From NCBI GenBank assembly GCA_049509455.1, contig JBEKZX010000030.1, positions 1-18,473 of the forward strand: a stretch of DNA of 18,473 nucleotides. Reading direction: 5' to 3'. Below, piece by piece: positions 279-16,827 of the stretch. The stretch comes from Conexivisphaerales archaeon (GTDB taxonomy: Archaea; Thermoproteota; Nitrososphaeria; Conexivisphaerales; DTJL01). Both the position numbers and the translations under genes were made by a program. Position 1 is the first letter of the stretch. The number at the start of each line of letters is the position of its first letter. Under the pieces are notes generated by a model. The model ran no database searches, was not told where the DNA came from, and saw only the letters and a program-made list of their open reading frames with translations.

Positions 279-364
279 CCTCTTAATCTTGGTGATCAAG
301 AAGAAGGAGTATCGCTGCGCTGATGACGCCGTCGGCCTCGACCTTGTCTTCTAGACTTCGACGG
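279..364 (+). repeat. Direct repeat copy A (86 bp): relic of the ABC permease 3' end, its downstream spacer and the att-like core
   Basis: Ungapped hand alignment to 5141-5226 gives 76/86 identity. Includes a 25-bp exact run TCTTGGTGATCAAGAAGAAGGAGTA and a 19-bp exact run GACGCCGTCGGCCTCGACC. Confidence 0.93.
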
Positions 365-390
365 TGTCCCTGTCCTTGGGGTCCAGGGCC
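351..390 (+). repeat. att-like core copy 1 (40 bp, the last 13 codons plus stop of gene G)
   Basis: CTAGACTTCGACGGTGTCCCTGTCCTTGGGGTCCAGGGCC is identical 40/40 to 2625-2664. Confidence 0.95.
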
Positions 391-560
391 TTCTTCAGCT
401 GCTTTGTGACCCAGTCGGAGTTCTCTCTATTTCCTAGCTCCTTGGCTGCTTCGTCCCTGGACAGCTTGTCCGCCTTCTTCTGCTCTGCCTCGTAGAGCGT
501 GTGCATGTCCTTGTAGGCCACCCTCTTCCCCTTCGTGTCCTCCTCGACTACGGACGACAT
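351..560 (-). CDS. Small hypothetical protein (69 aa, called gene G here) whose 3' end is repeated through the window
   Basis: ATG at 560 with TTTAAG at -30..-25. Homologous fragments at 2625-2727 and 14614-14673 conserve this reading frame (…DWV..Q.K.ALDPKDRDTVEV*), which supports real coding function. Confidence 0.8.
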   Translation of the reverse strand: MSSVVEEDTKGKRVAYKDMHTLYEAEQKKADKLSRDEAAKELGNRENSDWVTKQLKKALDPKDRDTVEV

Positions 561-584
561 ATCAGTCTTTATCCGTGGTCCTCC

Positions 585-590
585 CTTAAA
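585..590 (-). promoter_or_regulatory. Archaeal TATA box (TTTAAG) of gene G
   Basis: Lies 25-30 nt upstream of the ATG at 560, the spacing expected for a leaderless archaeal transcript. Confidence 0.55.
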
Positions 591-894
591 GGTGCACCTA
601 TCTTCTCTATTGACAATTGGTCACATAACATGGCTAGCGTCTCAACATGGATGATCCTAATCCCGTCCTTCGTTGATAAGCACAGCCTCGCTTGGGCGAC
701 CCTGGTGACACCCGGTCGTCTCATGCTCGGTCGCCTTCCGTGCACCGCAGGTCAATTCCCTCGTAACTCAGGCGGCTATTAGGGAAGTAGGGTTGAGGGT
801 TTGCGCCCAACGGTGATCGGCTTTGACCCTGCCTCCCCTGGGCGGACCACAGGGACTCCGAGTGGCCTCTCCTGGCCGTAACGTTGGAAGATGG

Positions 895-1728
895 TTACCC
901 GACGCTGCTTCCGCCAGGGCTCGTGGGTCTGACGTAGCGGACAGGACGACCTAACAGGCCCTGGAGGAGCACGTAGTACACTATCAGGATAACCGCATAT
1001 GGTAGGAAGAGGTATAGCACCACAATCGATAACGTGCCACCGGCCACGACGAGATAGGTCAACGTGAAATCATAGAAGGCGTGCGTGAACATGGTGACGA
1101 ACATGTTTCCGGTGAGCTGATACATATACGAGAAGGCCAGCGCCCCAAAGGCGAACCTGCTGATGGCGGAGATGGATAGGAGCTCGACGATCCGGTACAG
1201 GCCCGTCGACGGGCTGAAGGAGGAGAGGTCCGTGGGGACGTGGACGAGCGAAAACACGGCCGCGGAAACCAGCAGCCCAGAAGTGACACCGAACCTCCTG
1301 CTGGTGCCGACCTGAACGAAGCCCCTGAAGATGTATTCTTCGGCGAAGGCGACCAGCGCGACGCTGAAGGCGACGGCCGCGAGAGGGAGACCGGGCGTGA
1401 CGGCGACGAAGGTCGACGACCAGCCGCCTCCGAGCCAGACTAACAGGACGATGCCGGCCATGAAGGCCACGAAGAGGGGCGAAGCGAGGAGGAGGTCCTT
1501 CTTCGTCAGGCCGAGGTCCCTCCACGCAATGCCCTCGGATTTCATCGCAATGGCCCCGAAGCAGATTATTACCACATAACCCATCATCTGCTGAATAACG
1601 CCGACGTAAGGGCCGAGGGCGTTCCATACCATCGTGAGCATTTTGGCGTCCCCGTTGAGGAGAAAGAGTAGAAGCGTAAGAGAAACCACAAAGAAGGCGC
1701 CTAGGGCGGCGCTGGGCTTCTTGGACAA
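895..1728 (-). CDS. CPBP (CAAX prenyl protease / Abi) family intramembrane glutamic metalloprotease
   Basis: Multiple TM segments and the family motifs EEYIFRG, FSLVH and HAFYD. TTG start. Confidence 0.9.
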   Translation of the reverse strand: MSKKPSAALGAFFVVSLTLLLFLLNGDAKMLTMVWNALGPYVGVIQQMMGYVVIICFGAIAMKSEGIAWRDLGLTKKDLLLASPLFVAFMAGIVLLVWLGGGWSSTFVAVTPGLPLAAVAFSVALVAFAEEYIFRGFVQVGTSRRFGVTSGLLVSAAVFSLVHVPTDLSSFSPSTGLYRIVELLSISAISRFAFGALAFSYMYQLTGNMFVTMFTHAFYDFTLTYLVVAGGTLSIVVLYLFLPYAVILIVYYVLLQGLLGRPVRYVRPTSPGGSSVG

Positions 1729-1993
1729 CCTGAAATGCGCATACGAAGTCCGGCCTGAGCTTAATTAAGTTTGGGAGAGATGACTCCGCAATCTTGCCGT
1801 TCCATGTCCGCCGTCACCCGTCGCCCCTCGGGTGATGACCGACTTGAACCGGGGCCACGGTTCATCACGGGAAATGGTGAGGAATGCTGCGGGATGGTGG
1901 GATGCCCCAGATGAAACGAAGAAGGGTGGCCAACTTCGACAGAGGAGATGAGCGTTCCAAAATGAACCGCGATTCAAAGGCTTCTCTCCCATG

Positions 1994-2001
1994 TTTATAT
2001 A
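1994..2001 (+). promoter_or_regulatory. TATA box TTTATATA
   Basis: Lies 24-31 nt upstream of the ATG at 2025. Confidence 0.65.
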
Positions 2002-2024
2002 GACAGGGAGACCAAATACATATT

Positions 2025-2540
2025 ATGCCATTCTGCCCCGCCTGCGGAAAGCCCGTGGACGCCAACGTCGTCTTCTGTCCCAGTTGCGGATACAACATGC
2101 AGTCGGTTGGGCAAGGCGTCCCCCTTCCTGGAGGCGCGCCGCCCATGTCCATGCCGATGACCAGGGTGAGGCCCACTGGCGTTACGATACTGGCGATCCT
2201 TCAGATGCTCGGAGGGGTCCTGGTCTTCCTCCTCGGGATAGCGGCCGTGTCTGTTGCCGGGATGACCTCCACCCTTTCGACCTATGGCTACGGCTACCTA
2301 GCCGGGGCCATCGGGGTAGTAGGAGGGGTCATCATGGTCATAGGTCTGATTGGGATTGTTTTCGGGTATGGCCTTTGGAAGGGCATGAGCTGGGCCTGGT
2401 GGGCGACCCTGATATTCTCGATACTGGGAGCATTGGGGAGTCTGGTGGCGCTCCCGAGCGGTATCGTCGGCCTTCTCATCGAGGCGGCCATCATATACTA
2501 TCTCACCCGACCCGGCGTCAGGCAATATTTCCGCAAGTGA
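2025..2540 (+). CDS. Zinc-ribbon domain membrane protein (N-terminal double CxxC, Pro-rich linker, about 4 TM helices)
   Basis: MPFCPACGKPVDANVVFCPSCG followed by hydrophobic helices. Start moved from the track's 1884 to 2025 because of the TATA spacing and the domain start. Confidence 0.85.
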   Translation: MPFCPACGKPVDANVVFCPSCGYNMQSVGQGVPLPGGAPPMSMPMTRVRPTGVTILAILQMLGGVLVFLLGIAAVSVAGMTSTLSTYGYGYLAGAIGVVGGVIMVIGLIGIVFGYGLWKGMSWAWWATLIFSILGALGSLVALPSGIVGLLIEAAIIYYLTRPGVRQYFRK

Positions 2541-2624
2541 GTGTATCAACAGCCGCCTATGGTGTGGTGATGCCGGAGTCAGTAGAGTAGATGAGACTCT
2601 CCAGTGGCGGCCTTGCTGTCTATG

Positions 2625-2727
2625 CTAGACTTCGACGGTGTCCCTGTCCTTGGGGTCCAGGGCCTACTTCGACTGTCTCCTGACCCAGTCGGAGCTCTCT
2701 CCGTTCTTCAGCTCCTTTGCGGCATCG
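2625..2727 (-). pseudogene. Truncated copy 2 of gene G 3' end (DAAKELKNGESSDWVRRQSK*ALDPKDRDTVEV*)
   Basis: 40/40 identity to 351-390, then 46/63 ungapped identity to 391-453. In-frame TAG at 2666-2664 replaces Lys. Confidence 0.9.
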
Positions 2728-2811
2728 GCAGTGAACGCCTCCTCTAGATGACTTCTCCATCGGGCTGGTCGAGCCATAGAGAGGATACACGTATATCGCT
2801 CAGCAGGTAAA

Positions 2812-3765
2812 ATGACATATGGCGTGCTGACCATAGAGGGCCTTTCCAAGGAGTTCGGGGCGACCAAGAAGGTCCCCGCCTTGAAGTCGGTGAACCTCGA
2901 GGTCAACAAGGGGGAGATCGTCGGTTTCGTGGGGCTCAACGGCGCAGGGAAGACCACCACCATAAGGATCGTGGCCGGAGTAATCCGGCCGACCTCCGGC
3001 TCCGTCCGCGTCGAAGGCCTGGACGCCTTCAACAACCACGAGAAGGCCGCAGAGCTCTTCTCCTGGGTCCCCGAGAACCCCATCTTCGACCTCGGCTCGA
3101 ACGCCAGGAACTGGCTCCTCTACGTGTCAAGGTTCGGGTCGAAGGAGGTATCCGCCTCCCAGGTGGACGAGGCGCTCTCCAAGGTGGGCCTTGGCGACAA
3201 GGGGCGCGTGAAGTTGAAGGCCTATTCCCTGGGGATGAAGAGGAGGCTGGCCCTCGCTCAGGCCTTCCTCGAGGAGCCTCAGCTCCTGCTCATGGATGAA
3301 GCCATGAACGGGCTTGACCCGGAGGGGATGCACTTCTTCAGGGAGACCGTGAGGGACTTCAGGAACAAGGGAGGAGCCGTCCTCCTTTCGTCCCACGTCC
3401 TGACGGAGATCTCGGGAGTCTCCGACAGGGTCTCCTTCATACATAGAGGGACGACCTTCGAAACGAAGACCCTCGACGACCTCAAGCAGGAGTTCCAGTC
3501 CTCTTACGGCGCCTCGGTGACCTTCGAAGTCCAGGGGCTCGCCGACGCTGACCTCCTTGAAATTGGGCGGCTCTCCGGCGAGAAGGTCTCCTACGACGGG
3601 AAGGCCCTCGAGCTGAAGAGCGCCGACGAGTCCGTGGTCTCGGGCGTCAACAGGTACCTTGTGAGCGCCGGCCGCACCGTCACAGGCATAAGGCGGGTGG
3701 ACTTCAACCTGGAGCAGCTCTTCCTGGACAAGGTGCGTGAAGCCGACAGGAGGATGGGAGCTTGA
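2812..3765 (+). CDS. ABC-2 type exporter ATP-binding subunit
   Basis: Walker A GLNGAGKTT, signature YSLGMKRR, Walker B LLLMDE and H-loop SSH. Confidence 0.95.
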   Translation: MTYGVLTIEGLSKEFGATKKVPALKSVNLEVNKGEIVGFVGLNGAGKTTTIRIVAGVIRPTSGSVRVEGLDAFNNHEKAAELFSWVPENPIFDLGSNARNWLLYVSRFGSKEVSASQVDEALSKVGLGDKGRVKLKAYSLGMKRRLALAQAFLEEPQLLLMDEAMNGLDPEGMHFFRETVRDFRNKGGAVLLSSHVLTEISGVSDRVSFIHRGTTFETKTLDDLKQEFQSSYGASVTFEVQGLADADLLEIGRLSGEKVSYDGKALELKSADESVVSGVNRYLVSAGRTVTGIRRVDFNLEQLFLDKVREADRRMGA

Positions 3766-5174
3766 ACAAGGCCCTCCTCGTCTTCACGACAGAGCTTGTC
3801 AGGCAGCTGAAGAGCTGGAAGGTCCTGGTCGTCGTCGCCCTCATGCTCGCCCTTCTGATCTCAATCACGGCCTCCTACTCGGTCTCCGTTCAGCAGACTT
3901 CGTTCAACCAAGTCCAGCCCATGGCCGTCGCCATCAACGACACCGGCTTCCTCGGTGTCAGGGCGTATGTAGTCGACGGGGTGGGCAACCCGGTCTCCGT
4001 CCATCTCACTGTAGAGAAGGACGAGATGCAGCAAACGCCTCCGTACCAGTCGACGCCCATAGCGAGCTTCGACCTCTACACGGGCTCCGACGGCTTCGGA
4101 TACGTCAGGACCAACCTGAGCTACTCCGAGCTCAATCCCCCATCTAACGGAAGCTTCCCCAGTTATGAAATCATGATAGTCCAGAGGTCGGGCAGCAGTA
4201 GCTCTTCGAGCTCCCTGGGAGGCGGCTTCCACTTCCCTGAAAACGTCTCGGTGGAGACCGCGTCCGTCGTCTCCCCCAGCAACTCTTCGATCCCCGGAAT
4301 AGTGGTGTGGGGCATGAACCAGGATGGCACTCCCCTGTCGGCCCAAGTGTATGTGGGCGGAGTCTACAGGGGCGACCTCTCCAACGGCACTTTCAAGGGA
4401 TTCTACGATGTCGACAGCGCCGAGGTGGAGATATCCTACGGCTCTGAGGCCAACGTGAGCGTCGGGATGGTCTACAGATCTCAGAACTATTACTCGCTTC
4501 CACCAGCCGACGTGCTCATGATGTCAGTGAGCCAGGGCTTCCTGTCCTTCTTCGTACCCATCGCGGCGATCATCGCGGGATACGACGCCCTCGCGAGGGA
4601 GAAGGTGACGGGGGCCATCGAGCTGGTCATTTCGAGGCCCGTGTCCAAGGGGAAGGTCTACTGGGGGAAGACGGGGGGCGCCCTGGCCGCCATGGGCGTC
4701 TACTTCCTGGCCGTGTCGGTCGTCTTCTACCTCTTCGCCCGCTACATCGGTATCAGCCTCACCCTGGGCGACCTCGCCCTCACGTTCGCGGGGACGCTCT
4801 TCCTTCTCTTCATCTTCATCTTCTTCGAGTCCATCACCGGGTTCTTCGGGAGGAGCACCACCGCCCCCATACTCTGGGGCGTCCTCCTCTGGGTGTTCTT
4901 CAGCATAGTCTTCGGCATACTTACGTCGCTTCCGCTCCTGCTCACGGGGGGCGCCGTCAACTCCGCCTACGGGCTGGCCTTCGAGAACCTCATAAGCCTC
5001 TGCAACCCGGTCAGGGTGGCCACGCTGATAATGGGCCTCTCCTTCTTCAACAGCTCGAGCTCTTTCACGTCTAGCACGTATGGCCTGACGCCCACCATGG
5101 TCGTAGCCAGCGCCGTCGTCTGGGTCGTCGCCGTCACAGCCCTCTTCGTCTTGGTGATCAAGAAGAAGGAGTAG
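3762..5174 (+). CDS. ABC-2 type exporter permease with a large extracellular Ser-rich loop
   Basis: 4-bp overlap (TTGA) with the ATPase gene. One N-terminal TM, a ~200-aa loop, then the family motif GYDALAREKVTGAIELVISRPVSK and about 5 further TMs. Confidence 0.9.
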   Translation: MNKALLVFTTELVRQLKSWKVLVVVALMLALLISITASYSVSVQQTSFNQVQPMAVAINDTGFLGVRAYVVDGVGNPVSVHLTVEKDEMQQTPPYQSTPIASFDLYTGSDGFGYVRTNLSYSELNPPSNGSFPSYEIMIVQRSGSSSSSSSLGGGFHFPENVSVETASVVSPSNSSIPGIVVWGMNQDGTPLSAQVYVGGVYRGDLSNGTFKGFYDVDSAEVEISYGSEANVSVGMVYRSQNYYSLPPADVLMMSVSQGFLSFFVPIAAIIAGYDALAREKVTGAIELVISRPVSKGKVYWGKTGGALAAMGVYFLAVSVVFYLFARYIGISLTLGDLALTFAGTLFLLFIFIFFESITGFFGRSTTAPILWGVLLWVFFSIVFGILTSLPLLLTGGAVNSAYGLAFENLISLCNPVRVATLIMGLSFFNSSSSFTSSTYGLTPTMVVASAVVWVVAVTALFVLVIKKKE

Positions 5175-5226
5175 CGCTGCTCTGACGACGCCGTCGGCCT
5201 CGACCATGGCTTCACGACTTCGAAGG
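5141..5226 (+). repeat. Direct repeat copy B (86 bp), ending in a degenerate att-like core at 5213-5226
   Basis: 76/86 to 279-364. The core CACGACTTCGAAGG matches CTAGACTTCGACGG at 11/14, in the same register as copy A. Confidence 0.9.
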
Positions 5227-5276
5227 ATTGTCCGCTCGAGAGCTCAGAGATATGTATCATTTCACCATAGGCGCAA
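5216..5276 (+). pseudogene. Probable N-terminal piece of the GNAT gene separated by the IS (DFEGLSARELRDMYHFTIGA)
   Basis: Directly abuts the IS right end. Joined to 6476 onward it gives a GNAT-like spacing from the alpha1 Asp to the LVA strand, but needs a 1-nt frame correction. Confidence 0.45.
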
Positions 5277-5450
5277 GTCAACTACCCACGCCTGAAGGGT
5301 GTGGGCTTGTAACTCCCAGTTGGGCTACAATGGGCTGGTTGGCAACAGCCCTAGCGGCGATGTTCCTCGCGCCTACGTAGTCGGCCATCTCCTTGTATCC
5401 ACACGAGATACATTCAAAGTCGTTCCTCGTTGGCCGATTCCTCTTATCGA
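5261..5450 (-). ncRNA. Predicted TnpB omega/reRNA (3' of tnpB plus right-end hairpin plus flank-derived guide); 5' limit approximate
   Basis: Established TnpB architecture, in which the RNA overlaps the 3' end of the ORF and the right end and the guide is the adjacent flank. Here the guide would begin TTGCGCCTATGGTGAA (5276 to 5261). The 5' boundary cannot be determined from sequence. Confidence 0.6.
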
Positions 5451-6475
5451 CCACATGGCACTCCGGGCATTCTATCGACGTATTCCTTGGATCGACGACG
5501 GACATGGGAACGCCTTCTCTCTTCGCCTTATATTCAATGAACTCCCTCAGTTGGCGGAACGCCCACTTCGAGTGCCTGTCTCGCTGGCCATGCCAAACCG
5601 TTACCCTGGAGCGAATCCCACCCAAATCCTCGATGGCGATCGCCCTAGTTGTGCCTTTGGCCTTCGAGACGATGGCTTTGGATATCACATGGTTCGTGTC
5701 TTGCTTGAACCGTCTTTCCCTTCCGCTCATCTTCTTCAGATGCCTCTTTGCAGACTTGGTTCCCGTCTGCTGAAGCGACGACCTCAATCTGTTGTATCGG
5801 CTCCGTACGGCTTCTACCTTCTTGCCGCTGAAGACCTGCCCATCGCTATCGGTGGCGATGTTCTCTATCCCGAGGTCGACACCGAGCATTCCTCTTGGTT
5901 CAAATTCATTCTCTTCGGGAGCGTCCACGACGGCGACAAGATAGAAGACGCCCTTCCTGTAGATGAGGTCGGCTTGGCCCCGAATCCTGTCGGCTCTCGC
6001 TCGCTGGTAGTCTCCTATTCGGGTGGAGAGTTTGATCCTTCCCTCAAGTGTAATGAGGGAGACCCTGTCGATCCCCTTCCACGAGAGGTTTCGCTGGTCG
6101 TACTGTATCGCCCCCAACTCCTTGAACGATGGTTTTACGCTCTTGTCTCGCTTGTACGCCTCTACGACCTTGCTTATGACTCGGATGGCAAACTGGGCGC
6201 TGAGATTGAACTGCTCTCTTATCTCCCTGTAGAATGATTTTTGGAGTTCGTATTTGTTTGCCACCTTCAGCTCGAATGCCTCCTCCGCTAAGGAGTTGGC
6301 GGCGGCGTTGTATTGCCTCATGGTCTTCAGCAGGAGTTCCCTCTCCCGGTCATTTGTTTCGAGGCGTATCAGGAGAGACTGAAGCATTGAAACTTCCTAT
6401 CAATAAATGCATATTTAGACTTTCTGCCGCGATTCCTCCCACGACTGAAGCCGTGGGCTTCCTCGCTTCTTTATG
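5277..6475 (-). mobile_element. IS200/IS605-family TnpB-only (IS1341-like, non-autonomous) element, 1199 bp
   Basis: Left-end hairpin CCCACGGCTTCAGTCGTGGG (6457-6438) preceded by GAAG, with TCAC 14 nt further out (6479-6476). Right-end hairpin CCCACACCCTTCAGGCGTGGG (5305-5285) preceded by CAAG and followed by TAGTTGAC (ends 5277). No tnpA inside and no target duplication. Confidence 0.88.
5278..6387 (-). CDS. tnpB: TnpB RNA-guided endonuclease
   Basis: RuvC-I GVDLGIENIA, RuvC-II IAIEDL, zinc finger CPEC...CISC and RuvC-III ADYVGARNI. 369 aa with all three catalytic acidic residues present. Confidence 0.95.
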   Translation of the reverse strand: MLQSLLIRLETNDRERELLLKTMRQYNAAANSLAEEAFELKVANKYELQKSFYREIREQFNLSAQFAIRVISKVVEAYKRDKSVKPSFKELGAIQYDQRNLSWKGIDRVSLITLEGRIKLSTRIGDYQRARADRIRGQADLIYRKGVFYLVAVVDAPEENEFEPRGMLGVDLGIENIATDSDGQVFSGKKVEAVRSRYNRLRSSLQQTGTKSAKRHLKKMSGRERRFKQDTNHVISKAIVSKAKGTTRAIAIEDLGGIRSRVTVWHGQRDRHSKWAFRQLREFIEYKAKREGVPMSVVDPRNTSIECPECHVVDKRNRPTRNDFECISCGYKEMADYVGARNIAARAVANQPIVAQLGVTSPHPSGVGS

Positions 6476-6868
6476 GTGATTTCAGACAGGATCGAATTTG
6501 ACCTTGCACTGTATCCCAGAACTTGCCTGGTCGCCTCTAACGGTAGAGGGTTAATGGGCTTCTCGCTGACGGAGGTCACTGGCTCATACGCTTCCATATT
6601 CTTGCTCGTCGTCAATCCGGAGCGCAGGAGGAGAGGTGTGGGGTCGGCGCTGGTTGCTGACACGCTCAATCGACTGGCGGACGAGGGAGTCGAGTACGTC
6701 GAACTCATGACCTCCCTGGAGAACGAATCGGCTCAATCCTTCTGGATGAGGCAGGGCTTCAAAGACGCGAAGATGAAGGTCCTCTCCAAAGTCTCAAGGC
6801 GACGCGATACTCGGCGGAAGACTCAGGCCTTCAAGCTAGAGGAAGAGGCGAAAGCCAAGGGAAGATAA
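6473..6868 (+). pseudogene. GNAT family N-acetyltransferase, probably 5'-truncated by the IS
   Basis: Motif A VVNPERRRRGVGSALV and motif B ENESAQSFWMRQGF. The usual N-terminal beta1/alpha1 is missing and the ATG (6473-6475) lies inside the predicted IS left end. Confidence 0.75.
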
Positions 6869-7115
6869 CGTAGATTTGGGTGCCAGCTGCTGGGCCTCCG
6901 TCTAACAGGTCTAGGGACCAGGATGGCAGCCCCACAAGGGCGAGAGCGACCGCCATGGCCAGCACGACCTTCCAGTTCGACGGTACCTACTTCGCTTCAT
7001 GAGATGATGCGAAGAGAACCTTTTTGAATGATTCGACCCCACCGGCGGAGGGTTTCAACCTTCCTCCTTCACTAGCTTCAGGAGGACCCGGTAGCCCTCC
7101 TTCTCTCCGCCACCG

Positions 7116-7121
7116 TTAATA
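7116..7121 (+). promoter_or_regulatory. TATA-like TTAATA
   Basis: Lies 24-29 nt upstream of the GTG at 7145. Confidence 0.45.
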
Positions 7122-7144
7122 GCTCCCTCCGGTCATGAAGGGTT

Positions 7145-7858
7145 GTGACCAAGCCGTCGGAGAGGAAGATCGTCGTAACAAGGAACGGCCCCTTCATAGT
7201 CTCAGGGAACGTCCCGCTCGCCATATGGAGCATCATCCCCGGCAGGGACGGGATTTCGTGGGAATGGAAGGAGGGGAGGTCGTTCGACACCGAAGACGAG
7301 TACGCCCTCTGCCGGTGCGGCGGCTCGAAAGAGGAGCCCTTCTGCGATGGCACCCACGCCAAGATCAAGTTCAACGGGAAGGAGACGGCCAGCCGGTTCC
7401 CCTTCGCTGACCAGGCGAGGATCTTCGATGGGCCGACACTGACCCTGAGCGACGCGGAGGAGCTCTGCGCCCTAGCCCGTTTCTGTGACGCGGAAGGGGG
7501 GATCTGGAGGCTGACCAAGAAGACCGACGACCCGAAGGCCCGCGACCTCGTCATCCGCGAGGCGAACTACTGCCCGGCGGGCCGGCTGGCCGTGCAGGAC
7601 AGGAGGACCGGGAAGGAGATCGAGGAGGCGCTCCCTCTCTCCATCGGCGTGATCGAGGACCCGGGGCTCAGCCTCAGCGGGCCCCTGTGGGTACGCGGTG
7701 GGATAAGGATCGAGTCCCATAATGGAAAGCCTTACGAGGTGCGGAACCGGGTGACGCTCTGCCGCTGCGGGGCCTCCATGAACAAGCCCCTTTGCGACCG
7801 CGCCCACGTGGACATCGAGTTCCGGGACGGGCTCGTCGAGTTCGAGGAAACTAAGTAG
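7145..7858 (+). CDS. CDGSH iron-sulfur domain protein (two CDGSH motifs flanking a divergent ferredoxin-like domain)
   Basis: LCRCGGSKEEPFCDGTH and LCRCGASMNKPLCDRAH, both keeping the 3Cys-1His ligands. Central ELCALARFC...CPAGRL. Confidence 0.9.
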   Translation: MTKPSERKIVVTRNGPFIVSGNVPLAIWSIIPGRDGISWEWKEGRSFDTEDEYALCRCGGSKEEPFCDGTHAKIKFNGKETASRFPFADQARIFDGPTLTLSDAEELCALARFCDAEGGIWRLTKKTDDPKARDLVIREANYCPAGRLAVQDRRTGKEIEEALPLSIGVIEDPGLSLSGPLWVRGGIRIESHNGKPYEVRNRVTLCRCGASMNKPLCDRAHVDIEFRDGLVEFEETK

Positions 7859-8065
7859 GATGAAAAGAGAAGGGCGTCCCTTCCACTTCCTCCTGTCCAG
7901 ATTTGCGCCCGGCCGATTCATCTCAGCTCCCTGGCAGCCTCGTCTCTGGACAGCTGGCCGCGTTCTACCGGTGAGCATGGTCAATGCTTTTCGGGGAAAA
8001 GGGAATGAGGACCTCTATCCGGCTCAGGACCGAGCCCCATAGGGGGGATGTACTTCAGTGCCTCT

Positions 8066-8431: not shown

Positions 8432-8559
8432 CCTCGCTCATTTAAGGGTGCGAAGGCAGGATGTGATGGGTCACGTATCTATTCTGGGACCCAAGGCCTA
8501 GGCGAACCCGAGGTCTGACGGGGTCCCCTAACGGATGGGCAGCAAAGCAGAAATCCGAC

Positions 8560-8976: not shown

Positions 8977-9084
8977 AGTCTTCGTTCTTGATTGGCGGTT
9001 GCCGCTGTCACATCTTGCGGCGGACCCCGGTGGCATCGTAGACGCCTGCAAGGCGGTCGGAATTGCGCATCAATCATGGTCATT

Positions 9085-9327: not shown

Positions 9328-9579
9328 CAGCCTACTCTCCCGGTTCTCCTTCGTTCGAATCTCAGGTTGACCTTTAAGCTTTGATGATCCCCGGCACCTA
9401 TCTAAGAGACAGATTCATTCATCTTCGGCCATCAAACCTGACAGGGCCAGCCAAGGAGAGCTGCGACGCAGGCGTACGACCGGACGTTCCCAACGTCGAC
9501 CACGCCAAGGGCGGTCTGCAAATCCATATAACCTCAGATGCGCATCGGACAGAGACCGAAAGAAGGAGCCTGATCATCT

Positions 9580-10200
9580 GTGCGCCAGATGTTCTTCAAG
9601 CAGATCAAGAAGGCCGGAGACAACTTCTCCTACGTTGTGGCGGATGAGTTGACCAAGGAGGCGGCCGTGATCGACCCGAGCCGGAACGGCAAGGAGATAG
9701 CTCACCTTCTGACCGAGGGCGGCTTGAAACTGAAGTATGTCCTGCTCACGCATCATCACCCCGATCATCTTGGCGACAGCTACGAGCTCAGGTCGGCCGC
9801 AGGCGGCCTGCTGGTCGCCCACGGCGCTAGCGACGTCAAGAAGGACCTGGCGGTCGTCGACGGAGATGTGCTCAGCGTGGGATCGATTCGCCTTAAAGTG
9901 ATTCACACACCGGGCCACACGCCTGACAGCATCTGCATCCTTGCCGACGGGAAACTCATGACCGGGGACACCCTCTTCGTAGGGGAGTGTGGGAGGACGG
10001 ATCTGCCGGGAGGAGACCCCTCAGAGATGTATGACAGCCTGTTTCACAAGATAGCACGGTTGGATGACAAGACGGAAGTGTATCCTGGTCACGACTATGG
10101 CCCTACACCATCCTCCACACTTGGGGAGGAGATGAAAACCAACTACACACTGAAGGAACGCACCCTCGAGGAGTTCGTCAAGTTCATGGCCGAACCATAG
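9580..10200 (+). CDS. MBL-fold metallo-hydrolase (glyoxalase II / ETHE1-like)
   Basis: THHHPDHLGD (HxHxDH), HTPGHTPDS, GDTLF and PGHDYG. The start may be the ATG at 9589. Confidence 0.93.
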   Translation: MRQMFFKQIKKAGDNFSYVVADELTKEAAVIDPSRNGKEIAHLLTEGGLKLKYVLLTHHHPDHLGDSYELRSAAGGLLVAHGASDVKKDLAVVDGDVLSVGSIRLKVIHTPGHTPDSICILADGKLMTGDTLFVGECGRTDLPGGDPSEMYDSLFHKIARLDDKTEVYPGHDYGPTPSSTLGEEMKTNYTLKERTLEEFVKFMAEP

Positions 10201-10310
10201 GCCGCATCTGGCGCTCGGGACGTCATACCATTGCGGACATTGTTGAATGTCGTCCCGCGTCTGTCTTTTGCCCGTTGCGTGTTGATATGACATGTTCTGG
10301 GAGATAGCGC

Positions 10311-10697
10311 CTACCGACGAAGAGCCTTGGACAGGATTCCTTTGCCTAAATCCATAGCTTCGAGCTTCTCCCTAAGAGGATTGAGGATGGCTTCTGGTGT
10401 GACTGGCCCACCCTCCCATTCGAATTCGATGAAGCCGGATACGTAGGATGCGGGCAAGACGACTGGAGGATTCCCAACCAATCCAATGATCGTGGCCCTT
10501 ATGCTTGCCGTCAGCTTCTTGGGGTCGGCGTTCCTATGAGCCTTGACGGTCAACCTGAAGCCCGATTTCGTTTTGCCCAAGAAATCCATTGACCCTCCCG
10601 AGACGAAATCCTTTCCCAGTGTCTTCGAGGCTTTCTCTTCGATAGTAAGCCTAATCCAGAGACCATCTTTAGACAGGAAGGAAGCTTCTGCACTCAT
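10311..10697 (-). CDS. Hypothetical protein (128 aa)
   Basis: ATG preceded by GAGAGG, TTAAAA about 35-40 nt upstream, and natural amino-acid composition. No recognised motif. Confidence 0.65.
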   Translation of the reverse strand: MSAEASFLSKDGLWIRLTIEEKASKTLGKDFVSGGSMDFLGKTKSGFRLTVKAHRNADPKKLTASIRATIIGLVGNPPVVLPASYVSGFIEFEWEGGPVTPEAILNPLREKLEAMDLGKGILSKALRR

Positions 10698-10999
10698 CCT
10701 CTCGGAACCTTTAGACGAGTCGCCTCTTCACGGTTTTAACGGTTTCCTTCTTGTACCCGCGCGAAGATAGGGCCTGATTGGAACGGGTGCCAGCGGGCGT
10801 CCTGGCCGTTAAGCTCAGCCGGACGCTCAGCAAGAACAACGGCGCATAGCAAGTTAGTGAAATGGTAAACTACACTCAAGGGGTCGGCCAGCCCGTCAGT
10901 GAACATCTCAATTGTCAGCCGCCTGTAGACCACCCTGACCTTGACACATGGTAGGCTTCTGGCGACTTGCGGCAGGCCATTTATGAGGAATATAATGGG

Positions 11000-11197
11000 C
11001 TACGACATCACGGCGACCATCCGGTAGTTCTCTTCCATGAACTTCACATATAGCTCCGCTTGGTCGATCGTGCCAACGGGCTCGCTCCTGTCTCCCTCCT
11101 GAACCCATACAAGCCCTTTGCAGTCCTCGTAGAGCAAGGAGTAGATGTAGCTGACTTTCTGCAGTCGCTCGTTAAGTCTCTCCAGGGTCTCGCTCAT
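11000..11197 (-). CDS. Small hypothetical protein (65 aa, MSETLERLNERLQKV...)
   Basis: TTTATA at 11229-11224 sits 27-32 nt upstream of the ATG at 11197, which is preferred over the track's TTG at 11206. Confidence 0.6.
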   Translation of the reverse strand: MSETLERLNERLQKVSYIYSLLYEDCKGLVWVQEGDRSEPVGTIDQAELYVKFMEENYRMVAVMS

Positions 11198-11333
11198 CGC
11201 CTTCAATAATCGGGGGTTCCACGTATAAACCGCTAGGACCGCCGGTCGTTACTTCGGCTGATGTCGAACGAGGAAATCTAGAGGGTATTCTCGAGCCGAA
11301 GTTACCCGCCGGATTCCGAAGGGATCGACGCAG

Positions 11334-13280
11334 TCAGGCGCCTAGTCCCATCTTCTTCAACAATGCCGTATACCTCGGGTCTGACCGGATGGGGTCGAAA
11401 CGGGGTTCGACCTTTAGATCCTGGAGCCCCTCCGACCTCTCCCTATAGGCTACCTCCAACCACTCAAAGGCTGCATCTATCTCACCCAGGCACATATGCG
11501 CAGCCGCCATCTCCGAGGGGGATATGTAGTGCTCGCCCCTGATTGATTCGGCTTCCTTCAATGTCCTCCGCGCGTCCTGCTCCCTCCCGAGGAATGCATA
11601 CAACCGTGCCCACTCTCCTTTCGCCGCGACGACATCACCGAATAGTTCTTTGAGCCGAGGAACGAGAGCTGTCGCCTCCTTGACCATGGATGCTTGAATG
11701 TACTCCTCTACCAGATTGAAGTATGCGGCTATGAAATCAGGCTCCATCTCGAGCGCCTTCTTATGCGCCTCAATCGCCCGGTCGTACTCCCGCCTATAGT
11801 GGTAGACGACCCCCATGCAGGTGATTACCATCGGTGAGAGCGGGTCGAGCTCGTGCGCTCTCCTGATTTCGATCAGAGATTCGTCGAGCCTGCCCAGAGC
11901 TGAAAGGAGGATGGAGTACCAGTGGTGGGCGGTCGCGTAGCTCGGGTTGAGCTCGATTGCCCTTCTGAACTCCATCTCTGCCCTTGACCATTCCCACCTG
12001 TCCATCAGGATGGCCCCGAAAGCCGTGTGAGCCTCGCCTAGCTCATCGTCTATCTTCAGAGCCTTGGCCACGTTTTGCTCCGCTTTCGGGAGGCCCTCAG
12101 CCAAGCCCATGTATTCAAAGCTTACGAGCCCGATGCAGGCGTCGGCGATCCCGACGTAAGCAAGGGCATAGAGGGGATCCTTTTCGATGGCGTGTTCGAA
12201 GTACTGGATCGCCTTCTTCAATCCCTCTTCGCTCCTTTCGTTCCAGTAGTACCTTCCTTTCAGATACAGCGTGTGGGCTTCCATGTCTTTCGTCGGTTCC
12301 TTCTGTATCTTCTCCCTGTCTCCTGTCAGAAGCCGAACTCTGAGCGCCTCGGCGACCTTCTCGGCGATCTCGCTCTGGATCGCGAAGATGTCGTCAAGTT
12401 CCCTGTCGTAGTTCTGGGCCCAGATGTGCCCGTCGTTCCGGGCGTCGATGAGCTGGACGCTTATCCTCACCTTGTTCCCGGCCTTCCTGACGCTCCCCTC
12501 CAGCACCGTCCCCACGGACAGCTCGCGCCCGATATCCAAGACCTTCTTGGGGGCCTTCTTGTATTGCATCACGCTGGTCCTCGCGATGACCGTGAGCTCC
12601 CTGACGCCCGCCAGCGTCATGATGAGCTCCTCAGTCATGCCGTCGGCGAAGTACTCGTCGTTGGGGTCGGGGCTCATGTTCTGGAGAGGCAGCACGGCGA
12701 TCCTCCGCGTGTCAAGCTCGACCTCCTCCTTCGTCGAGCTGGCCTCCCAGGGCATCACAATCCTGTAGACGTCGATAGGCGTCTTGACGTTCTTCAGCGT
12801 CCTCTGCTCCAACTTCTCCAAGGGGAGCTCCATCTTGTTCCTGACCTGGTCGTAGATCTGCTCAGATATGCAGACGCCGCTGGGGGCCGCGAGCGGCCCG
12901 ATGCGAGAGGAAATGTTGACCGCGTCGCCGAGGATGTCCCCCTCTCTCTCCACCACGTCGCCCAGGTGGACCCCGACGCGGAGCTCCAGCCTCTTCCCCT
13001 CCGGGAGGGAGACGTTCCTCGCGTGCATCTCCTCCTGGATATCGACCGAACAGCGAACCGCGTCGAGGGCGCTCTGGAACTCGACCAGGAAGGCGTCCCC
13101 CATCGTCTTGATCTCCTTGCCGTTGAACCTCGGGAAGATGGAGCGCAGGATCCGCCGGTTCTCCTCCAGGGAGGCGAGCGCGTGGTCCTCGTTCGCCTGG
13201 GCGAGGGCCGTGTAGCCGACGATGTCGGTGAACATGATCGCGGCAAGCCTCCGTTCTCCCTGTAACAACGGAAGGACCAT
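11334..13280 (-). CDS. Class III adenylate/guanylate cyclase - TolB-like - TPR protein
   Basis: Cyclase motifs AAIMFTDIVGYT, KTMGDAFLVEF and GDILGDAVNISSRI. TolB-like IAVLPLQNMSPDPNDEYFADGMTEELI. C-terminal TPR repeats. TTTTAT at -27..-22. Confidence 0.93.
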   Translation of the reverse strand: MVLPLLQGERRLAAIMFTDIVGYTALAQANEDHALASLEENRRILRSIFPRFNGKEIKTMGDAFLVEFQSALDAVRCSVDIQEEMHARNVSLPEGKRLELRVGVHLGDVVEREGDILGDAVNISSRIGPLAAPSGVCISEQIYDQVRNKMELPLEKLEQRTLKNVKTPIDVYRIVMPWEASSTKEEVELDTRRIAVLPLQNMSPDPNDEYFADGMTEELIMTLAGVRELTVIARTSVMQYKKAPKKVLDIGRELSVGTVLEGSVRKAGNKVRISVQLIDARNDGHIWAQNYDRELDDIFAIQSEIAEKVAEALRVRLLTGDREKIQKEPTKDMEAHTLYLKGRYYWNERSEEGLKKAIQYFEHAIEKDPLYALAYVGIADACIGLVSFEYMGLAEGLPKAEQNVAKALKIDDELGEAHTAFGAILMDRWEWSRAEMEFRRAIELNPSYATAHHWYSILLSALGRLDESLIEIRRAHELDPLSPMVITCMGVVYHYRREYDRAIEAHKKALEMEPDFIAAYFNLVEEYIQASMVKEATALVPRLKELFGDVVAAKGEWARLYAFLGREQDARRTLKEAESIRGEHYISPSEMAAAHMCLGEIDAAFEWLEVAYRERSEGLQDLKVEPRFDPIRSDPRYTALLKKMGLGA

Positions 13281-13349
13281 GAATGAATAGAGGTGAGTCG
13301 CATAAAACCGTTATGGGCAGAACTCGGCCAGACGCAGAGGCCGGCCTGG

Positions 13350-14150
13350 CTACATCTCTCCCCCGCGACGAACCGTCCAGAAGTCGTCAGATAGATTGCG
13401 ATCCCCTAGGTATTCGTAGGGGATCGTGAAGTACCCGCTCATCCCCCATTTCGGCCCCCAAGAATTCCTGACGATGAACCTTTGCTGGGAATCATCGTAG
13501 CCGACCCCGACCACGGCATGCCCGCCCACCACCTTTTCCCCGGGCTGAGGCATCGGCACGACTCCTGTGTCTGCTACCGGCTGTGATTCGAAGCTCTGGT
13601 AGGCCGTGAAGCCGAACACGAAGGGGTATCCCTCGGCCAGGCACGCTCGCATGTCGTCGGTGATGAGGATGCGGTGATACGACGTAATCTCGTGCCTCTG
13701 CGCCTCCTTGTAGGAGGCTGCGCTGGGCTTGACGCGGAACTTGGAGATGATGTACGGCCAGGTGCTCTCCAAGCACACGCCCTGCTTCGCCAGCGTCTTC
13801 ATGCCGTCACGAAGCGTCGCCCCGGAATCCGAGTTCACCGTGTTTTCGATGGCCCGTTCATCGTAGTAGATGAAAAGCCTGCTGAGATACACCAGCGGAA
13901 GCCCGTCCTTCAGTTCAAGGAACTCCAGATCCCCGGCGAGGGCGTTGGCGGAGCAGCTTCCAAGCTGCCCCTGGTTCGCAACCGGCGGACATGCGGGTCT
14001 CAAATCGACCTTCGGAGGAAGCTTTGGCGGCGCTACCCTGATCGCGCTGTAAAGGAAATCACGTTGATCCGGGATGTCTGGCACCCATCCGTAGCGGCCC
14101 TTGACTGAGTTCGGTCTGCTCAATTGGGATTCAAACCATCCAATTATCAT
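13350..14150 (-). CDS. Papain-like cysteine peptidase (family C1), no evident signal peptide
   Basis: NQGQLGSCSANA (oxyanion Gln and catalytic Cys), GGHAVVGVGYDD (His) and VRNSWG (Asn). Exact start uncertain. Confidence 0.93.
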   Translation of the reverse strand: MIIGWFESQLSRPNSVKGRYGWVPDIPDQRDFLYSAIRVAPPKLPPKVDLRPACPPVANQGQLGSCSANALAGDLEFLELKDGLPLVYLSRLFIYYDERAIENTVNSDSGATLRDGMKTLAKQGVCLESTWPYIISKFRVKPSAASYKEAQRHEITSYHRILITDDMRACLAEGYPFVFGFTAYQSFESQPVADTGVVPMPQPGEKVVGGHAVVGVGYDDSQQRFIVRNSWGPKWGMSGYFTIPYEYLGDRNLSDDFWTVRRGGEM

Positions 14151-14393
14151 AAGGAAGCTGCTTTCTTATGTACTCTTCCTAACCGATTATCAAGGATGGC
14201 CTAGGTATCATATATTATTAGAGAAAAGTGCAGTCGAATCATCAAGGGTTCACGTGTGAGACTTACTTCTCCTTTTCCTCGGTTTCCGCGGGCGGAAAGG
14301 CCCTTCCCAACCCGTGCAGGGGGTCTTCATGAGCGAGCACGTCGACCGGGACGCGCTCCTCCTGAGTACTCTATGGCCACCTTCGGCTCTGGG

Positions 14394-14510
14394 CTATGGT
14401 AGGGCCACTTGTTGTGGGTTCGCACTCGGGGCGGTGACGAGCTTGACCTTGATTTTCGCGTACTGCCAGAAGATCAAGTCCCTGACCGTCTTGACAGCCG
14501 ATGGTGGCAC
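14394..14510 (-). pseudogene. Relic 5' end of a probable HNH endonuclease gene (GTG-PPSAVKTVRDLIFWQYAKI, then unrelated sequence and a stop)
   Basis: From memory, the first 20 codons (14510-14451) resemble the N-terminus of a prokaryotic HNH nuclease family (..VKT.RDLI.(W/Y)QYAKII). No HNH motif remains, so this is unverified. Confidence 0.45.
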
Positions 14511-14613
14511 GGTTACAATGAACGCAGGACCATGGCATAAGGGTCACATATGTGGGCGGACAATCGTTCCTTAGGTGGCCTGGACAACTATAGGTGTGTT
14601 CAGGCGCTAGATA

Positions 14614-14676
14614 CTAGACTTCTACGGTGTTTCTGTCGTTGGGGTCCAGGACCTTCTTCAGCAGCTTCGTGACCTA
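14614..14676 (-). pseudogene. Truncated copy 3 of gene G 3' end (*VTKLLKKVLDPNDRNTVEV*)
   Basis: 53/60 ungapped identity to 351-410. The next codon is TAG in place of TGG (Trp) and homology stops there. Confidence 0.9.
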
Positions 14677-14709
14677 GGAGAGTCTTCTACTCTCCCGGCC
14701 ACCCTGTCG

Positions 14710-16131
14710 TCAAGTCGGCGGAGATCGAGGGTCCCGGTGACGCCTGAGAGACCGGATGATCGCATGGGCGCCCCTGAGGGAGTTCGCCAGGAACCTGCTC
14801 CTCTTCTCGAGAGCTCCGGCCAGAATCGCCTCTTCAGACACCAACTCCGCCTTCAAATCGTGGATGTCGACCTTCGGCGAGAAGAAGACATAGAGGGGTA
14901 CTCCGAGCGCGATCACGGCGGTCCCTATGAGCTTGTCCACGGAGGAGATGGAGTAGAGCAGGTAAAGGCAGATGGCCACCCCAAGGACGGGCACCACGTT
15001 CTGCCCGTGCAGCCCTCCCTCCCCCTTTTTCTTCAATCGGAAGAACGCCAGGCAGACGAGGAGGAAGGAGAAGGCCAGGTTGAAGACCGAGAACGAAATC
15101 AGGCTAGCCAGCTGCGTGTATGTTGAGAGGACCAGGGCGATGACCGCCTGGACTATCAGCGCCACGTACGGCGTCTTGAACTTGGGATGTATCCTGGCGA
15201 ACGACCTTGGAAAGAGGCCGTCCACGGCCATGGCGTAGGAAAGCCTTGCCGTCCCCAGTATGCCCGATTCGTCTGAGCCGGAGACGGAGACCAGCGCCCC
15301 CAAGCTCATGATTCCGCCGCCAAACCGCCCCAACAGGACGGAGCCGACGACGACCAATGGAACGGAGGTCGCAGCAAGCCGGCCCCAGTTCAAGGTCCCG
15401 AAGATGACGAAGTTGGTGGAGAGGTAGAATGCCATGACTATCGCCATGCCCGTGATTATCGCCTTGGGGACCGTGGCCTTAGGGTCCTTCACTTCCGCCG
15501 ATGGCAGGGTGCCCAGCTCGAATCCGACATAGGCCCAGAAGATGAGCACCAGGGCGGAGCCGAAGTTGCCCAGCCCTAGGGGAGCTAGAGGCGCGTAGTT
15601 TGAGAGGCGGCCCGGGTTGTATGCGAACGAAACTAGGCCGGCGACCACCAACAGGACGAGCGGCGACAGCTTGGCGACCGTGAGGACGTCGTTCACCCTC
15701 CCGGCTGCCTTTACGCCGACGATGTTCACCAGGGTCAGCCCGAAGAGGAAGAGCGCCTTGACGAGGAGCGATTCGGTGAAGTCGAGGTGGACGAAGTATC
15801 CCAAGTAGTTGGCAAACGTCAACGCGAAGACGGGAAGCGCGAGGACCTCGGCGATCCACATGCTCCATCCCGCCAGAAAGCCGAAGAAGTCGTTGAAGGC
15901 GGTCGAGACGTAGGCGAAGGAGCCGCCTTCCTTGGGCACGTAGTAGCTGGAGTAGGCGAAGACTAGGGCCAGCACCGTGGCCATGATGCCGGCGATCACC
16001 CAGACCACGATCGAAAAGGGGCCCACCAGGCCGGCGGTTATAGCCGACGCGATGTAGATGTCGCTGCCCACTATGGCTCCTACCACTATGTTCGTCAGGT
16101 CGAAGTAGGAGAGGTCACGCCTGAGCTCCAC
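14710..16131 (-). CDS. APC superfamily amino acid permease
   Basis: About 12 TM helices, VGAIVGSDIY (TM1 unwound motif), PKEGGSFAYV, FWAYVGFE and ARLSYAMAVDGLFP..F..IHPKFKTP. GTG start. Confidence 0.93.
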   Translation of the reverse strand: MELRRDLSYFDLTNIVVGAIVGSDIYIASAITAGLVGPFSIVVWVIAGIMATVLALVFAYSSYYVPKEGGSFAYVSTAFNDFFGFLAGWSMWIAEVLALPVFALTFANYLGYFVHLDFTESLLVKALFLFGLTLVNIVGVKAAGRVNDVLTVAKLSPLVLLVVAGLVSFAYNPGRLSNYAPLAPLGLGNFGSALVLIFWAYVGFELGTLPSAEVKDPKATVPKAIITGMAIVMAFYLSTNFVIFGTLNWGRLAATSVPLVVVGSVLLGRFGGGIMSLGALVSVSGSDESGILGTARLSYAMAVDGLFPRSFARIHPKFKTPYVALIVQAVIALVLSTYTQLASLISFSVFNLAFSFLLVCLAFFRLKKKGEGGLHGQNVVPVLGVAICLYLLYSISSVDKLIGTAVIALGVPLYVFFSPKVDIHDLKAELVSEEAILAGALEKRSRFLANSLRGAHAIIRSLRRHRDPRSPPT

Positions 16132-16208
16132 GATCGCACACGCTCACCTTGACGGGATTCGACGCTATTAGCCTTGCATCTCCCTCGACAGAGGCTGTAG
16201 GCCGCTCA

Positions 16209-16273
16209 TTCTGCACCGCCTGCGGGAAACCCTTAAGGCTAGGGCGAAGTTTTGCGGATCCTCGGGACGTCCA
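16209..16273 (+). pseudogene. Decayed zinc-ribbon fragment (FCTACGKPLRL[G]AKFCGS[S]GRP)
   Basis: The double CxxC pattern is recoverable with one 1-nt insertion, and the fourth Cys reads TCG instead of TGC. 16207-16232 matches 2029-2054 of the intact zinc-ribbon gene at 23/26. No start codon. Confidence 0.6.
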
Positions 16274-16332
16274 TCTCCTGAAGCTGCTCTGGAGCGAGCC
16301 GATGATGCCGAATCCGCTCTATTGACGACCCG

Positions 16333-16692
16333 TCAGTCGTACATGTCTTTCAATTTGATGTCTTCTCTCATCTTCGAGACCGTTTCCTGAGCTGCCTCTT
16401 CCTTCATGCTCTCGACTATGAAGTTGGCAACCTCCTCAGGGTACCTGTAGAAAAGCTTCTCCACGCCCGACCATAGGACGCCCGAAGATTCCGAGTCGAC
16501 CCCCCTCCCGCCGGTGAGCAGCGTCCTGAGCATGTCGCTCATCCCTTGGGCGATGAGGAGGCCGAAGTAGCCGTCGTCGTCCAGCTCCTCGCCCATGAGC
16601 TCGTCCGCGACGGCCCTAAACGCCTTCACGAGCTTCGCGTCCCTCTCCGGGAGCTTGAATTCGAACCGCGTTCCTTCCGATTCCTCGCCCAT
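16333..16692 (-). CDS. Hypothetical protein (119 aa); N-terminus loosely ribbon-helix-helix-like
   Basis: ATG with upstream GAGTGTGA and acidic helical composition. RFEFKLPERDAKLVKAFR resembles a strand-helix start; this is weak. Confidence 0.7.
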   Translation of the reverse strand: MGEESEGTRFEFKLPERDAKLVKAFRAVADELMGEELDDDGYFGLLIAQGMSDMLRTLLTGGRGVDSESSGVLWSGVEKLFYRYPEEVANFIVESMKEEAAQETVSKMREDIKLKDMYD

Positions 16693-16813
16693 ATCACACT
16701 CATAATCTAAGTGACCCTCCGTTCCATTTCTATGTTTCGGGAGGACCCATGTTTCAAGGGCACGATCTCAATCAGTGCCGCTCGTCATGGACCGTTCGGG
16801 GCCTGCCTGCTAG

Positions 16814-16827
16814 CTAGACTTCGACGG
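16814..16827 (+). repeat. att-like core copy 5 (CTAGACTTCGACGG, 14/14)
   Basis: Exact 14-mer that begins at the same base (the gene G stop codon) as the other copies, is intergenic and has the same orientation. Confidence 0.7.

Follow-up and report, generated by a model that had tools for sequence, protein, structure and literature searches.

We analysed an 18,473-bp stretch of DNA (the window) that makes up an entire contig, labelled C65, of a 2.05-Mb metagenome-assembled genome in 140 contigs; the source genome (G000) belongs to a Nitrososphaerota archaeon of the Conexivisphaerales type. The window carries an intact copy of a small orphan gene, here called G (351..560, minus strand), and several partial copies of it, which lie between blocks of accessory genes (cargo). 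In our best explanation, the window is a piece of a flexible genomic island that is specific to the lineage of this archaeon, which comes from peat or soil. We propose that the G units of this island act as dispersed direct repeats, that homologous recombination among them pops cargo blocks out and in, and that surplus copies decay; we give this proposal about an even chance of being correct. The comparisons include four congeners (G001, G002, G003 and G004), of which G004 is a long-read genome of the same genus in ten contigs, as well as the further contigs L034, L036, L041 and L044 (L034 and L044 are metagenomic). Individual contigs are designated by C-numbers (e.g. C65, C67, C70 and C77 in G000). 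Positions within G are counted from the stop codon, i.e. position 1 is the first base of the stop-codon end and corresponds to 351 in the window.

Array organisation and shuffled synteny

A genome-wide search for G showed that the copies form a clustered, strictly co-oriented array in a variable region of the two array-bearing genomes compared, G000 and G004, as had been predicted from the sequence of the window alone; they are not paralog debris strewn over the genome in random orientation. G-like pieces are present on about 10 contigs of G000 and are always co-oriented within a contig. In G004 all copies and remnants are located on a single strand between 482 and 568 kb of one 576-kb contig, which defines an 85-kb island. 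There the protein search found 12 copies, while the DNA search gave 18, to which 2 short pieces were added by eye. All of the 61 repeat pairs of the G004 island are direct and none is inverted. In the other congeners, as in a metagenomic relative, G is present once and no fragments lie close to it.

G004 has two intact copies (at 522503 and 567453), and the second of these is the most upstream copy of the array, whereas the intact G of the window is the most downstream copy. The remnants in G004 are biased, as 8-11 of them keep the 3' end versus 1 that keeps the 5' end. In more than 10 copies the stop codon is the exact point where homology to G starts, and this also holds for copies with 95-100% identity over the first 40-77 nt.

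The contigs C65, C70, C77, C122, C25 and C67 are mosaics of G004 island blocks that are 76-95% identical and occur in scrambled order. For example, successive blocks of C70 correspond to G004 at 513, 501, 516, 537, 556, 509, 534 and 502 kb, and the window block 2730-5195, which carries the ATP-binding cassette (ABC) transporter genes, is 85% identical to G004 487090-489556. Despite the scrambling, 24 out of the 26 blocks that measure 100 nt or more keep their orientation relative to G. Of the other two, one is the start of the contig (window 1-207), which is 87% identical to G004 510412-510618 in inverted orientation, and one is a distant match of 68% identity.

The sequence-only reading expected that modules in related genomes would break at the conserved end of G. 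This was confirmed as a tendency rather than as a rule: the modules are reordered with their orientation preserved and their ends are enriched at G remnants, but several ends have no G. Specifically, for 13 of the 39 internal block ends there is, in one genome or in both, a G remnant no more than 35 nt away, while this is true of 2-4% of the sequence, which amounts to a 5- to 10-fold enrichment (P ~1e-5 for each genome). The k-mers enriched at block ends are solely words of the G 3' end, and the same k-mer search revealed no other motif there.

Recombinant G genes

Two contigs carry G genes that appear to combine two parental copies. In L044, one mosaic G is located between the left flank of the G004 copy at 522503 and the right flank of the copy at 532905; relative to L044, G004 carries an extra 10.4 kb bounded by two direct G copies. 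In L041, the downstream flank and the first 13 nt of the C77 copy (3773) are joined to the rest of the window G and the CPBP gene upstream of it, and the switch falls within a 41-nt stretch that is identical in both parents (positions 14-54). The sequence of this joint would fit a pop-out deletion. We thus see an indel that is bounded by two repeat copies and leaves a hybrid in the short form in L044, and also in L041, with the caveat of a possible assembly chimera discussed below. One rearrangement joint, in C70 (9054-9227), lies in a different direct repeat of 176 nt, so that G is not the sole repeat used.

In the att-scar reading, the 14-bp core at the stop codon would be a fixed crossover point. 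The hybrids do not agree with this, since the crossover falls within positions 14-54 in L041 and the L044 gene is a mosaic, although these are two cases only. A fixed crossover at position 13/14 was also suggested by four orthologous pairs and was dropped: the break at position 13 is a 24-nt microhomology deletion in G004 530272 and a 13-nt substitution patch in C98 816, while L041 and L044 switch elsewhere.

Copies of G in the window

Five copies of G in one orientation at gene boundaries had been read from the window sequence, and our matches and ORF (open reading frame) map agree with this. The 14-mer at the G stop codon, CTAGACTTCGACGG, is found on the plus strand exactly at 351, 2625 and 16814, with 1 mismatch at 14614 and with 3 mismatches at 5213, and each copy falls between called ORFs, on the same strand. 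When up to 3 mismatches are allowed, there are 8 matches in the window as opposed to 2.26 expected, and 0 of 200 shuffles reach 8. The unit lengths calculated from these copies (2274, 2588, 9401 and 2200 bp) are arithmetically right. A sixth, internal piece that had been missed (7925..7966, minus strand, positions 86-128), located between a CDGSH gene and the next gene, divides the 9.4-kb unit. The copies translate to C-terminal peptides of G that are broken by in-frame stops.

The remnants differ in length and in preservation. The one at 2625..2727 (minus strand) retains positions 1-103 with 83% overall identity and an in-frame TAG. Its first 41 nt are identical to 351-391 and the remainder is about 73% identical, a pattern that would be expected from gene conversion. 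The remnant at 14614..14677 (minus strand) retains positions 1-64 at 87.5% identity (53/60), and the one at 16814..16827 (minus strand) is reduced to 14 exact bases followed by scrambled sequence; the latter is orthologous to a G004 copy that is still 118 nt long.

The remnant at 5213..5233 (minus strand) comprises some 20 nt from the 3' end of G and adjoins the spacer at the end of a permease gene (5141-5212). The whole segment 5141-5233 is a direct repeat of 279-369 (86-93 nt, 87-88% identity), and the stretch next to the intact gene (279..350, plus strand) accordingly contains a permease relic, i.e. the last 10 codons of an ABC-2 permease and a spacer, paralogous to 5141-5212. Frame 1 of 279-350 reads LLILVIKKKE..., while the intact permease ends with LFVLVIKKKE and a stop codon. 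Since 279-350 holds these permease-end codons, the intact G once had a second, convergent permease gene beside it, as the copy at 5213 still has one.

Origin of the remnants

The sequence-only reading considered the partial copies to be att scars, i.e. pieces of a gene end left behind by integrating elements. Comparison of orthologous positions speaks against this. The 64-nt piece of the window at 14614 and the ~22-nt piece at G004 556788 have the same downstream neighbour (14450-14544 in the window) as the intact G of G001. In L034 an intact G takes the place of the pieces at G004 530272 and C67 12114 (positions up to 34), and by comparison with L034 the first 12 nt of G004 530272 were lost through a 24-nt deletion between GTCCC repeats. 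G004 532905, which is without its first 27 nt, corresponds to the intact G of L044. Finally, G004 526990 and a piece in L034 retain different parts of one copy, and the same holds for G004 515809 and a piece in L036.

Altogether, 5 of the 5 remnants that could be tested trace either to a complete G or to differing pieces of one copy. As the remnants match a complete G at orthologous positions and are truncated differently in different lineages, they were not born partial as att scars; judged by these alignments, they are eroded complete genes, and the points of truncation reflect the lineage rather than an incoming element. Remains of the promoter to the right of truncated copies, which would be a sign of internal deletion, were found only at G004 530813. 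The two possibilities that had been raised for G also fare differently in this respect: a G that travels with the modules fits the data better, and an intact G beyond the window that serves as the target fits less well.

Gene G and its promoter

Gene G encodes a 69-aa protein, and the copy in the window, with its complete ORF and translation, is the sole intact copy found in G000. The protein has no family match in Pfam or NCBIfam, and a query of the ESM Atlas yielded nothing about its function. An AlphaFold2 model shows two helices with a mean predicted local distance difference test (pLDDT) score of 71. The family amounts to 38 clusters among 1.8 billion representatives, many of which are fragments, and is confined to the genus, as it is present in 4 out of 4 congeners versus 0 out of 36 other relatives.

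The promoter region (561..633, minus strand) contains a TATA-like box (CCTTTAAGGGAG at 581-592, plus strand) and a palindrome, TTGACAATTGGTCA, at 610-623, and both elements precede the G ORF in all intact copies compared, including those of G004, G002 and G003. The ratio of nonsynonymous to synonymous substitution rates (dN/dS), calculated against intact copies from 7 other genomes or contigs, is 0.07-0.3. Because of this low ratio and the conserved promoter we regard G, on the strength of sequence comparison, as a real gene under purifying selection with a promoter of its own. The palindrome is the right-hand edge of the conserved G unit, so that the full unit consists of the palindrome, the TATA box and the 69-codon ORF (~285 bp). 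Beyond the palindrome and beyond the stop codon, the flanks of intact G copies are unrelated to each other. The palindrome type TGAC-N5-GTCA occurs in 16 copies genome-wide in G000 and at three G promoters in G004. In the window, a second palindrome is located at 16323-16335, where a 24-nt stretch is 75% identical to the G promoter; this could be due to chance or it could be a promoter relic.

One further G copy of G000 (C77:3773-3982) is intact except for a single in-frame TGA, which may be a recent inactivation or a sequencing error. This copy is the closest relative of the terminal intact G004 copy (dS 0.13).

Search for recombination machinery

No tyrosine recombinase (PF00589), serine recombinase (PF00239) or Cas1 (PF01867) was found in or beside the island in G000 and G004, and PF01867 has no match anywhere in these two genomes. 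An inspection of the genes around the array likewise revealed no recombinase. The mapping of recombinases proposed in the sequence-only reading thus produced one tyrosine recombinase match in G000, on the unrelated contig C100, and none near G copies; in G004 the nearest PF00589 match is about 83 kb from the island. The C100 contig was rejected as a G-linked integrase contig, as it has no G piece and the 28-nt match found there belongs to a membrane-protein gene. A 379-aa ORF divergent from the terminal G004 G was likewise considered as a hidden recombinase and rejected; it has no family match and is absent from G000.

The 3' end of G was also inspected for an attC-like hairpin. Single-stranded DNA folds of three copies on both strands have no shared structure, with 5 out of 6 z values between -1.3 and +1.3 and one at -3.1. 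A tRNA or known RNA (Rfam) that might be the true target was found neither in the window nor in 130 kb of related loci. The idea of an integron-like cassette array does not receive support from these results, as there is no integrase in or beside the array and no attC-like hairpin, and many of the modules are multi-gene and mixed-strand.

Evaluation of the explanations

If G units are dispersed direct repeats that recombine, the course of events might be as follows. The island would have been assembled from units consisting of cargo genes plus a complete G unit, all in one direction. Recombination between two direct G units would delete the intervening DNA or release it as a circle, with one hybrid G, and the released DNA, or DNA of another strain, would be inserted, with its orientation kept, into any of the other G copies. 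The G copies would in addition convert one another. As an outcome, the order of the blocks would be shuffled and their orientation would be kept. Just one or two copies of G would need to stay functional, while the others would be eroded by small and large deletions, mainly in the promoter and the 5' part, and would end up as silent 3' stumps that start at the stop codon. We infer that the recombination is of the RadA-type homologous kind with circles as intermediates, and our guess is that the preferential loss of the 5' end is due to selection against an expressed truncated protein.

There are a number of points that weigh against recombination among G units and that need to be discussed. 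Several of the block ends lack a G remnant, as do both sides of the G004 ABC block. The exact start of homology at the stop codon in more than 10 copies is more precise than homologous recombination plus decay requires; it needs the extra assumption of old flank divergence with later gene conversion. Recombination alone does not account for the bias for 3' over 5' retention in G004 either, and recombination between existing copies does not explain how some 20 unrelated cargo units first acquired a G. Just two genomes with arrays were compared and many remnants are shared by descent, so the number of events is small. Finally, L041 could be an assembly chimera formed at the 41-nt exact repeat.

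A competing explanation is a site-specific, integron-like or att-type system, in which the 3' end of G would be the site, the recombinase would be encoded elsewhere and small circles would be integrated serially. Such a system would readily produce the strict co-orientation of the copies, the sharp edge of homology at the stop codon and the bias to 3' fragments, and it would fit the G004 array, where an intact G (567453) is found furthest upstream, even though the window's intact G is at the wrong end of its neighbours. It would also agree with the small single-ORF blocks of ~520-575 bp flanked by G pieces, and with thaumarchaeal elements that integrate into 3'-distal parts of protein genes and form tandem arrays (PMC6563490). 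On the other hand, the 85-kb array has no PF00589, PF00239 or Cas1 gene in it or next to it, there is no hairpin signal, and the remnants come from complete genes with lineage-specific truncations and with crossovers that are not at one place. Two orthologous pairs do share the left flank and positions 1-13 and differ after ~14, but this apparent recurrent break at position 13 comes down to a microhomology deletion in one case and a substitution patch in another. The genus has a second, very abundant, co-oriented short site (see below), so some activity of this sort may exist, but neither the window nor most G flanks contain it. We therefore consider a site-specific mechanism unlikely, and we retain it at this level because the origin of the cargo-G association, the loss of 5' halves and the exact boundary at the stop codon are unexplained. 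An elaborated version, in which the G 3' end is the site of an integron-like, hitherto undescribed gene-capture platform with its integrase in trans in Nitrososphaerota, placed inside an expressed gene that is restored with each insertion and perhaps linked to the GGGCTTGGACCTGCGA site, seems to us somewhat less probable still.

Another explanation is that the copies are passive debris, i.e. an old tandem-duplicated family that decayed in place without a causal role, in a region that is unstable for other reasons. Segmental duplication that includes flanks did take place (the permease end, spacer and G are found together at 279-369, at 5141-5233 and at G004 557964-558018), other direct repeats carry joints, many block ends are without G, and non-coding DNA is near saturation between the two genomes, so that sharp edges at gene ends are expected. 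We nevertheless think that this is improbable, to about the same degree as the site-specific mechanism: the order of the blocks is scrambled rather than merely thinned, with orientation kept; the indel of L044 is bounded by two G copies and has a hybrid gene; block ends are 5 to 10 times more frequent at G remnants than expected; and the cargo blocks are mutually unrelated, unlike the products of tandem duplication. One could also imagine that a TnpB protein encoded in the window (5278-6387) drives the array, if a guide RNA derived from a G end directed it to cut other G ends and so seeded rearrangements. The 3' end of tnpB and the right end of the element are about 45 nt from the remnant at 5213-5233, and the predicted RNA fold of the region 5200-5400 (minus strand) is good (z = -2.2); the guide part of the ωRNA would be derived from G if the element has its right end near 5213-5233. 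But the gene is present once in G000, with no tnpB-like sequence beside the other G copies there, and its block has no counterpart in the 96 kb of G004 that were compared, where TnpB was not searched by protein or family. Moreover, the flanking remnant is diverged (11/14 in the core) and would match other copies poorly, and there is no match to an ωRNA family in Rfam, which makes this scenario very improbable.

Comparison with known systems

It is useful to compare the general features of the G array with those of known systems. Of 68 thaumarchaeal integrated elements, 14 have the 3'-distal part of a protein gene as their target, and tandem arrays have been seen as well (Krupovic et al. 2019, PMC6563490). 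As in flexible islands and 3'-end integration hotspots, including those of the thaumarchaeal elements, co-oriented partial 3' copies separate accessory blocks, the content varies among close relatives, and the intact gene is upstream in the G004 array. There are also clear differences. Here we see no integrase-carrying element; the cargo of the 0.5-10 kb blocks is made up of ordinary genes for transport and metabolism; the partial copies are the eroded remains of whole genes rather than attP-derived pieces; and the target is a multi-copy orphan gene.

The second group of comparable systems are integrons, which are also present in archaea (Ghaly et al. 2022, PMC9668308). The G array resembles integrons, archaeal integrons and clusters of attC sites lacking integron-integrases (CALINs) in as much as it is long and co-oriented, its units are reordered with orientation kept, and some units are single small ORFs. 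In contrast to integrons, it lacks IntI, attI and an attC hairpin, its repeated element codes for a protein and carries its own promoter, many of its units comprise several genes on both strands, and the crossovers do not fall at a fixed point. CALINs, for their part, lack IntI by definition. Casposons insert at the 3' end of a gene with a 14-15 bp target duplication; the G array differs from this as there is no Cas1 match and the island repeats are all direct.

Homologous recombination between dispersed direct repeats, such as rRNA operons, insertion sequence (IS) copies and paralogous genes, leads to pop-out and pop-in rearrangements. The G array has much in common with such cases, namely the repeat-bounded indel that leaves a hybrid copy, the gene-conversion mosaics and the preserved orientation. 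What sets it apart is that one tiny orphan gene provides some 20 repeats in 85 kb, all in one direction.

The array is a testable example of accessory-gene reorganisation in an uncultured soil archaeon, with the G repeats as the proposed joints of an 85-kb region. If plain homologous recombination is the mechanism, integron-like behaviour, i.e. shuffled order with kept orientation, would arise without a dedicated site or enzyme, and this would call for caution in reading the many "non-attC cassette arrays" that are currently described. If the mechanism is site-specific, the array would be a new kind of archaeal gene-capture platform. In either case G is singled out as a conserved, selected, one-genus protein for functional study.

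Cargo and neighbouring genes

The first cargo block (895..2540) encodes a CPBP/Rce1-like protease (895-1728, minus strand) and a membrane zinc-ribbon protein (1884-2540, plus strand), with Pfam matches to PF02517, PF13240 and, weakly, DUF7144. The second block (2812..5174, plus strand) is composed of an ABC ATPase gene (2812-3765, PF00005) and an ABC-2 permease gene (3762-5174, PF12679). It is followed by the gene of the TnpB protein (5278..6387, minus strand; IS200/IS605 OrfB, Cas12f-like; PF07282, PF01385), which abuts the remnant at 5213. We tried TnpB as a repeated element and rejected it: according to tblastn and blastn against the genome, the gene and its flanks are single copy in G000 and unlinked to other G copies.

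The remaining cargo includes GNAT, CDGSH, PNPOx-like and metallo-beta-lactamase-fold proteins, a cyclase-TPR protein, a C1 peptidase, an APC permease, a 119-aa orphan and an SDR protein. Many modules are multi-gene with genes on both strands, and two units of 519-575 bp contain one ORF. One of these is cassette A (16296..16813, minus strand), a 519-bp single-ORF block whose ORF (16333-16692) encodes the 119-aa protein without a family match; the palindrome at 16323-16335 described above is at its left end. The counterpart of cassette A in G004 (530293-530812, 92% identity) has a G remnant on either side, and one metagenome contig carries the cassette on the opposite side of a 3.2-kb block.

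The cyclase-TPR protein (648 aa, 11334-13280) combines an adenylate/guanylate cyclase domain with C-terminal TPR repeats, and its gene adjoins that of the papain-family C1 peptidase (13350-14150); the pair is unusual for an archaeon. In G004, the region immediately upstream of the terminal intact G (C3:567863-576458) contains a defence-type cluster that is absent from G000. This cluster includes an SNF2/ResIII helicase with a NOV_C domain and a DUF1156 methylase of the anti-phage-associated type.

A second repeat in the genus

A second repeat, unrelated to G, was noticed outside the window. Its consensus is GACGT(G/A)GGCTTGGACCTGCGAA..ATGGGCTGAC, and with at most 1 mismatch it has at least 49 copies in G000, located on contigs C58, C69, C112, C3, C51, C93, C96 and others. 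We tried to link this site, GGGCTTGGACCTGCGA, to the G array and abandoned the idea, as a profile search found it absent from the window and from most G-bearing contigs. The copies are co-oriented within most contigs, an exception being C96, where 1 of 4 copies is on the opposite strand. The congeners G004, G002 and G001 have 61, 49 and 24 copies, respectively, while the single copy in G003 is no more than is found with the control pattern. In G004 the repeat is grouped in local arrays, which change direction at about C2:104 kb, and the G island contains one copy (547518) as well as a weak one (555333) at a distance of 6 nt from the stop codon of a G copy. The distribution of this repeat looks like that of a genus-wide junction site or of a small repeat element.

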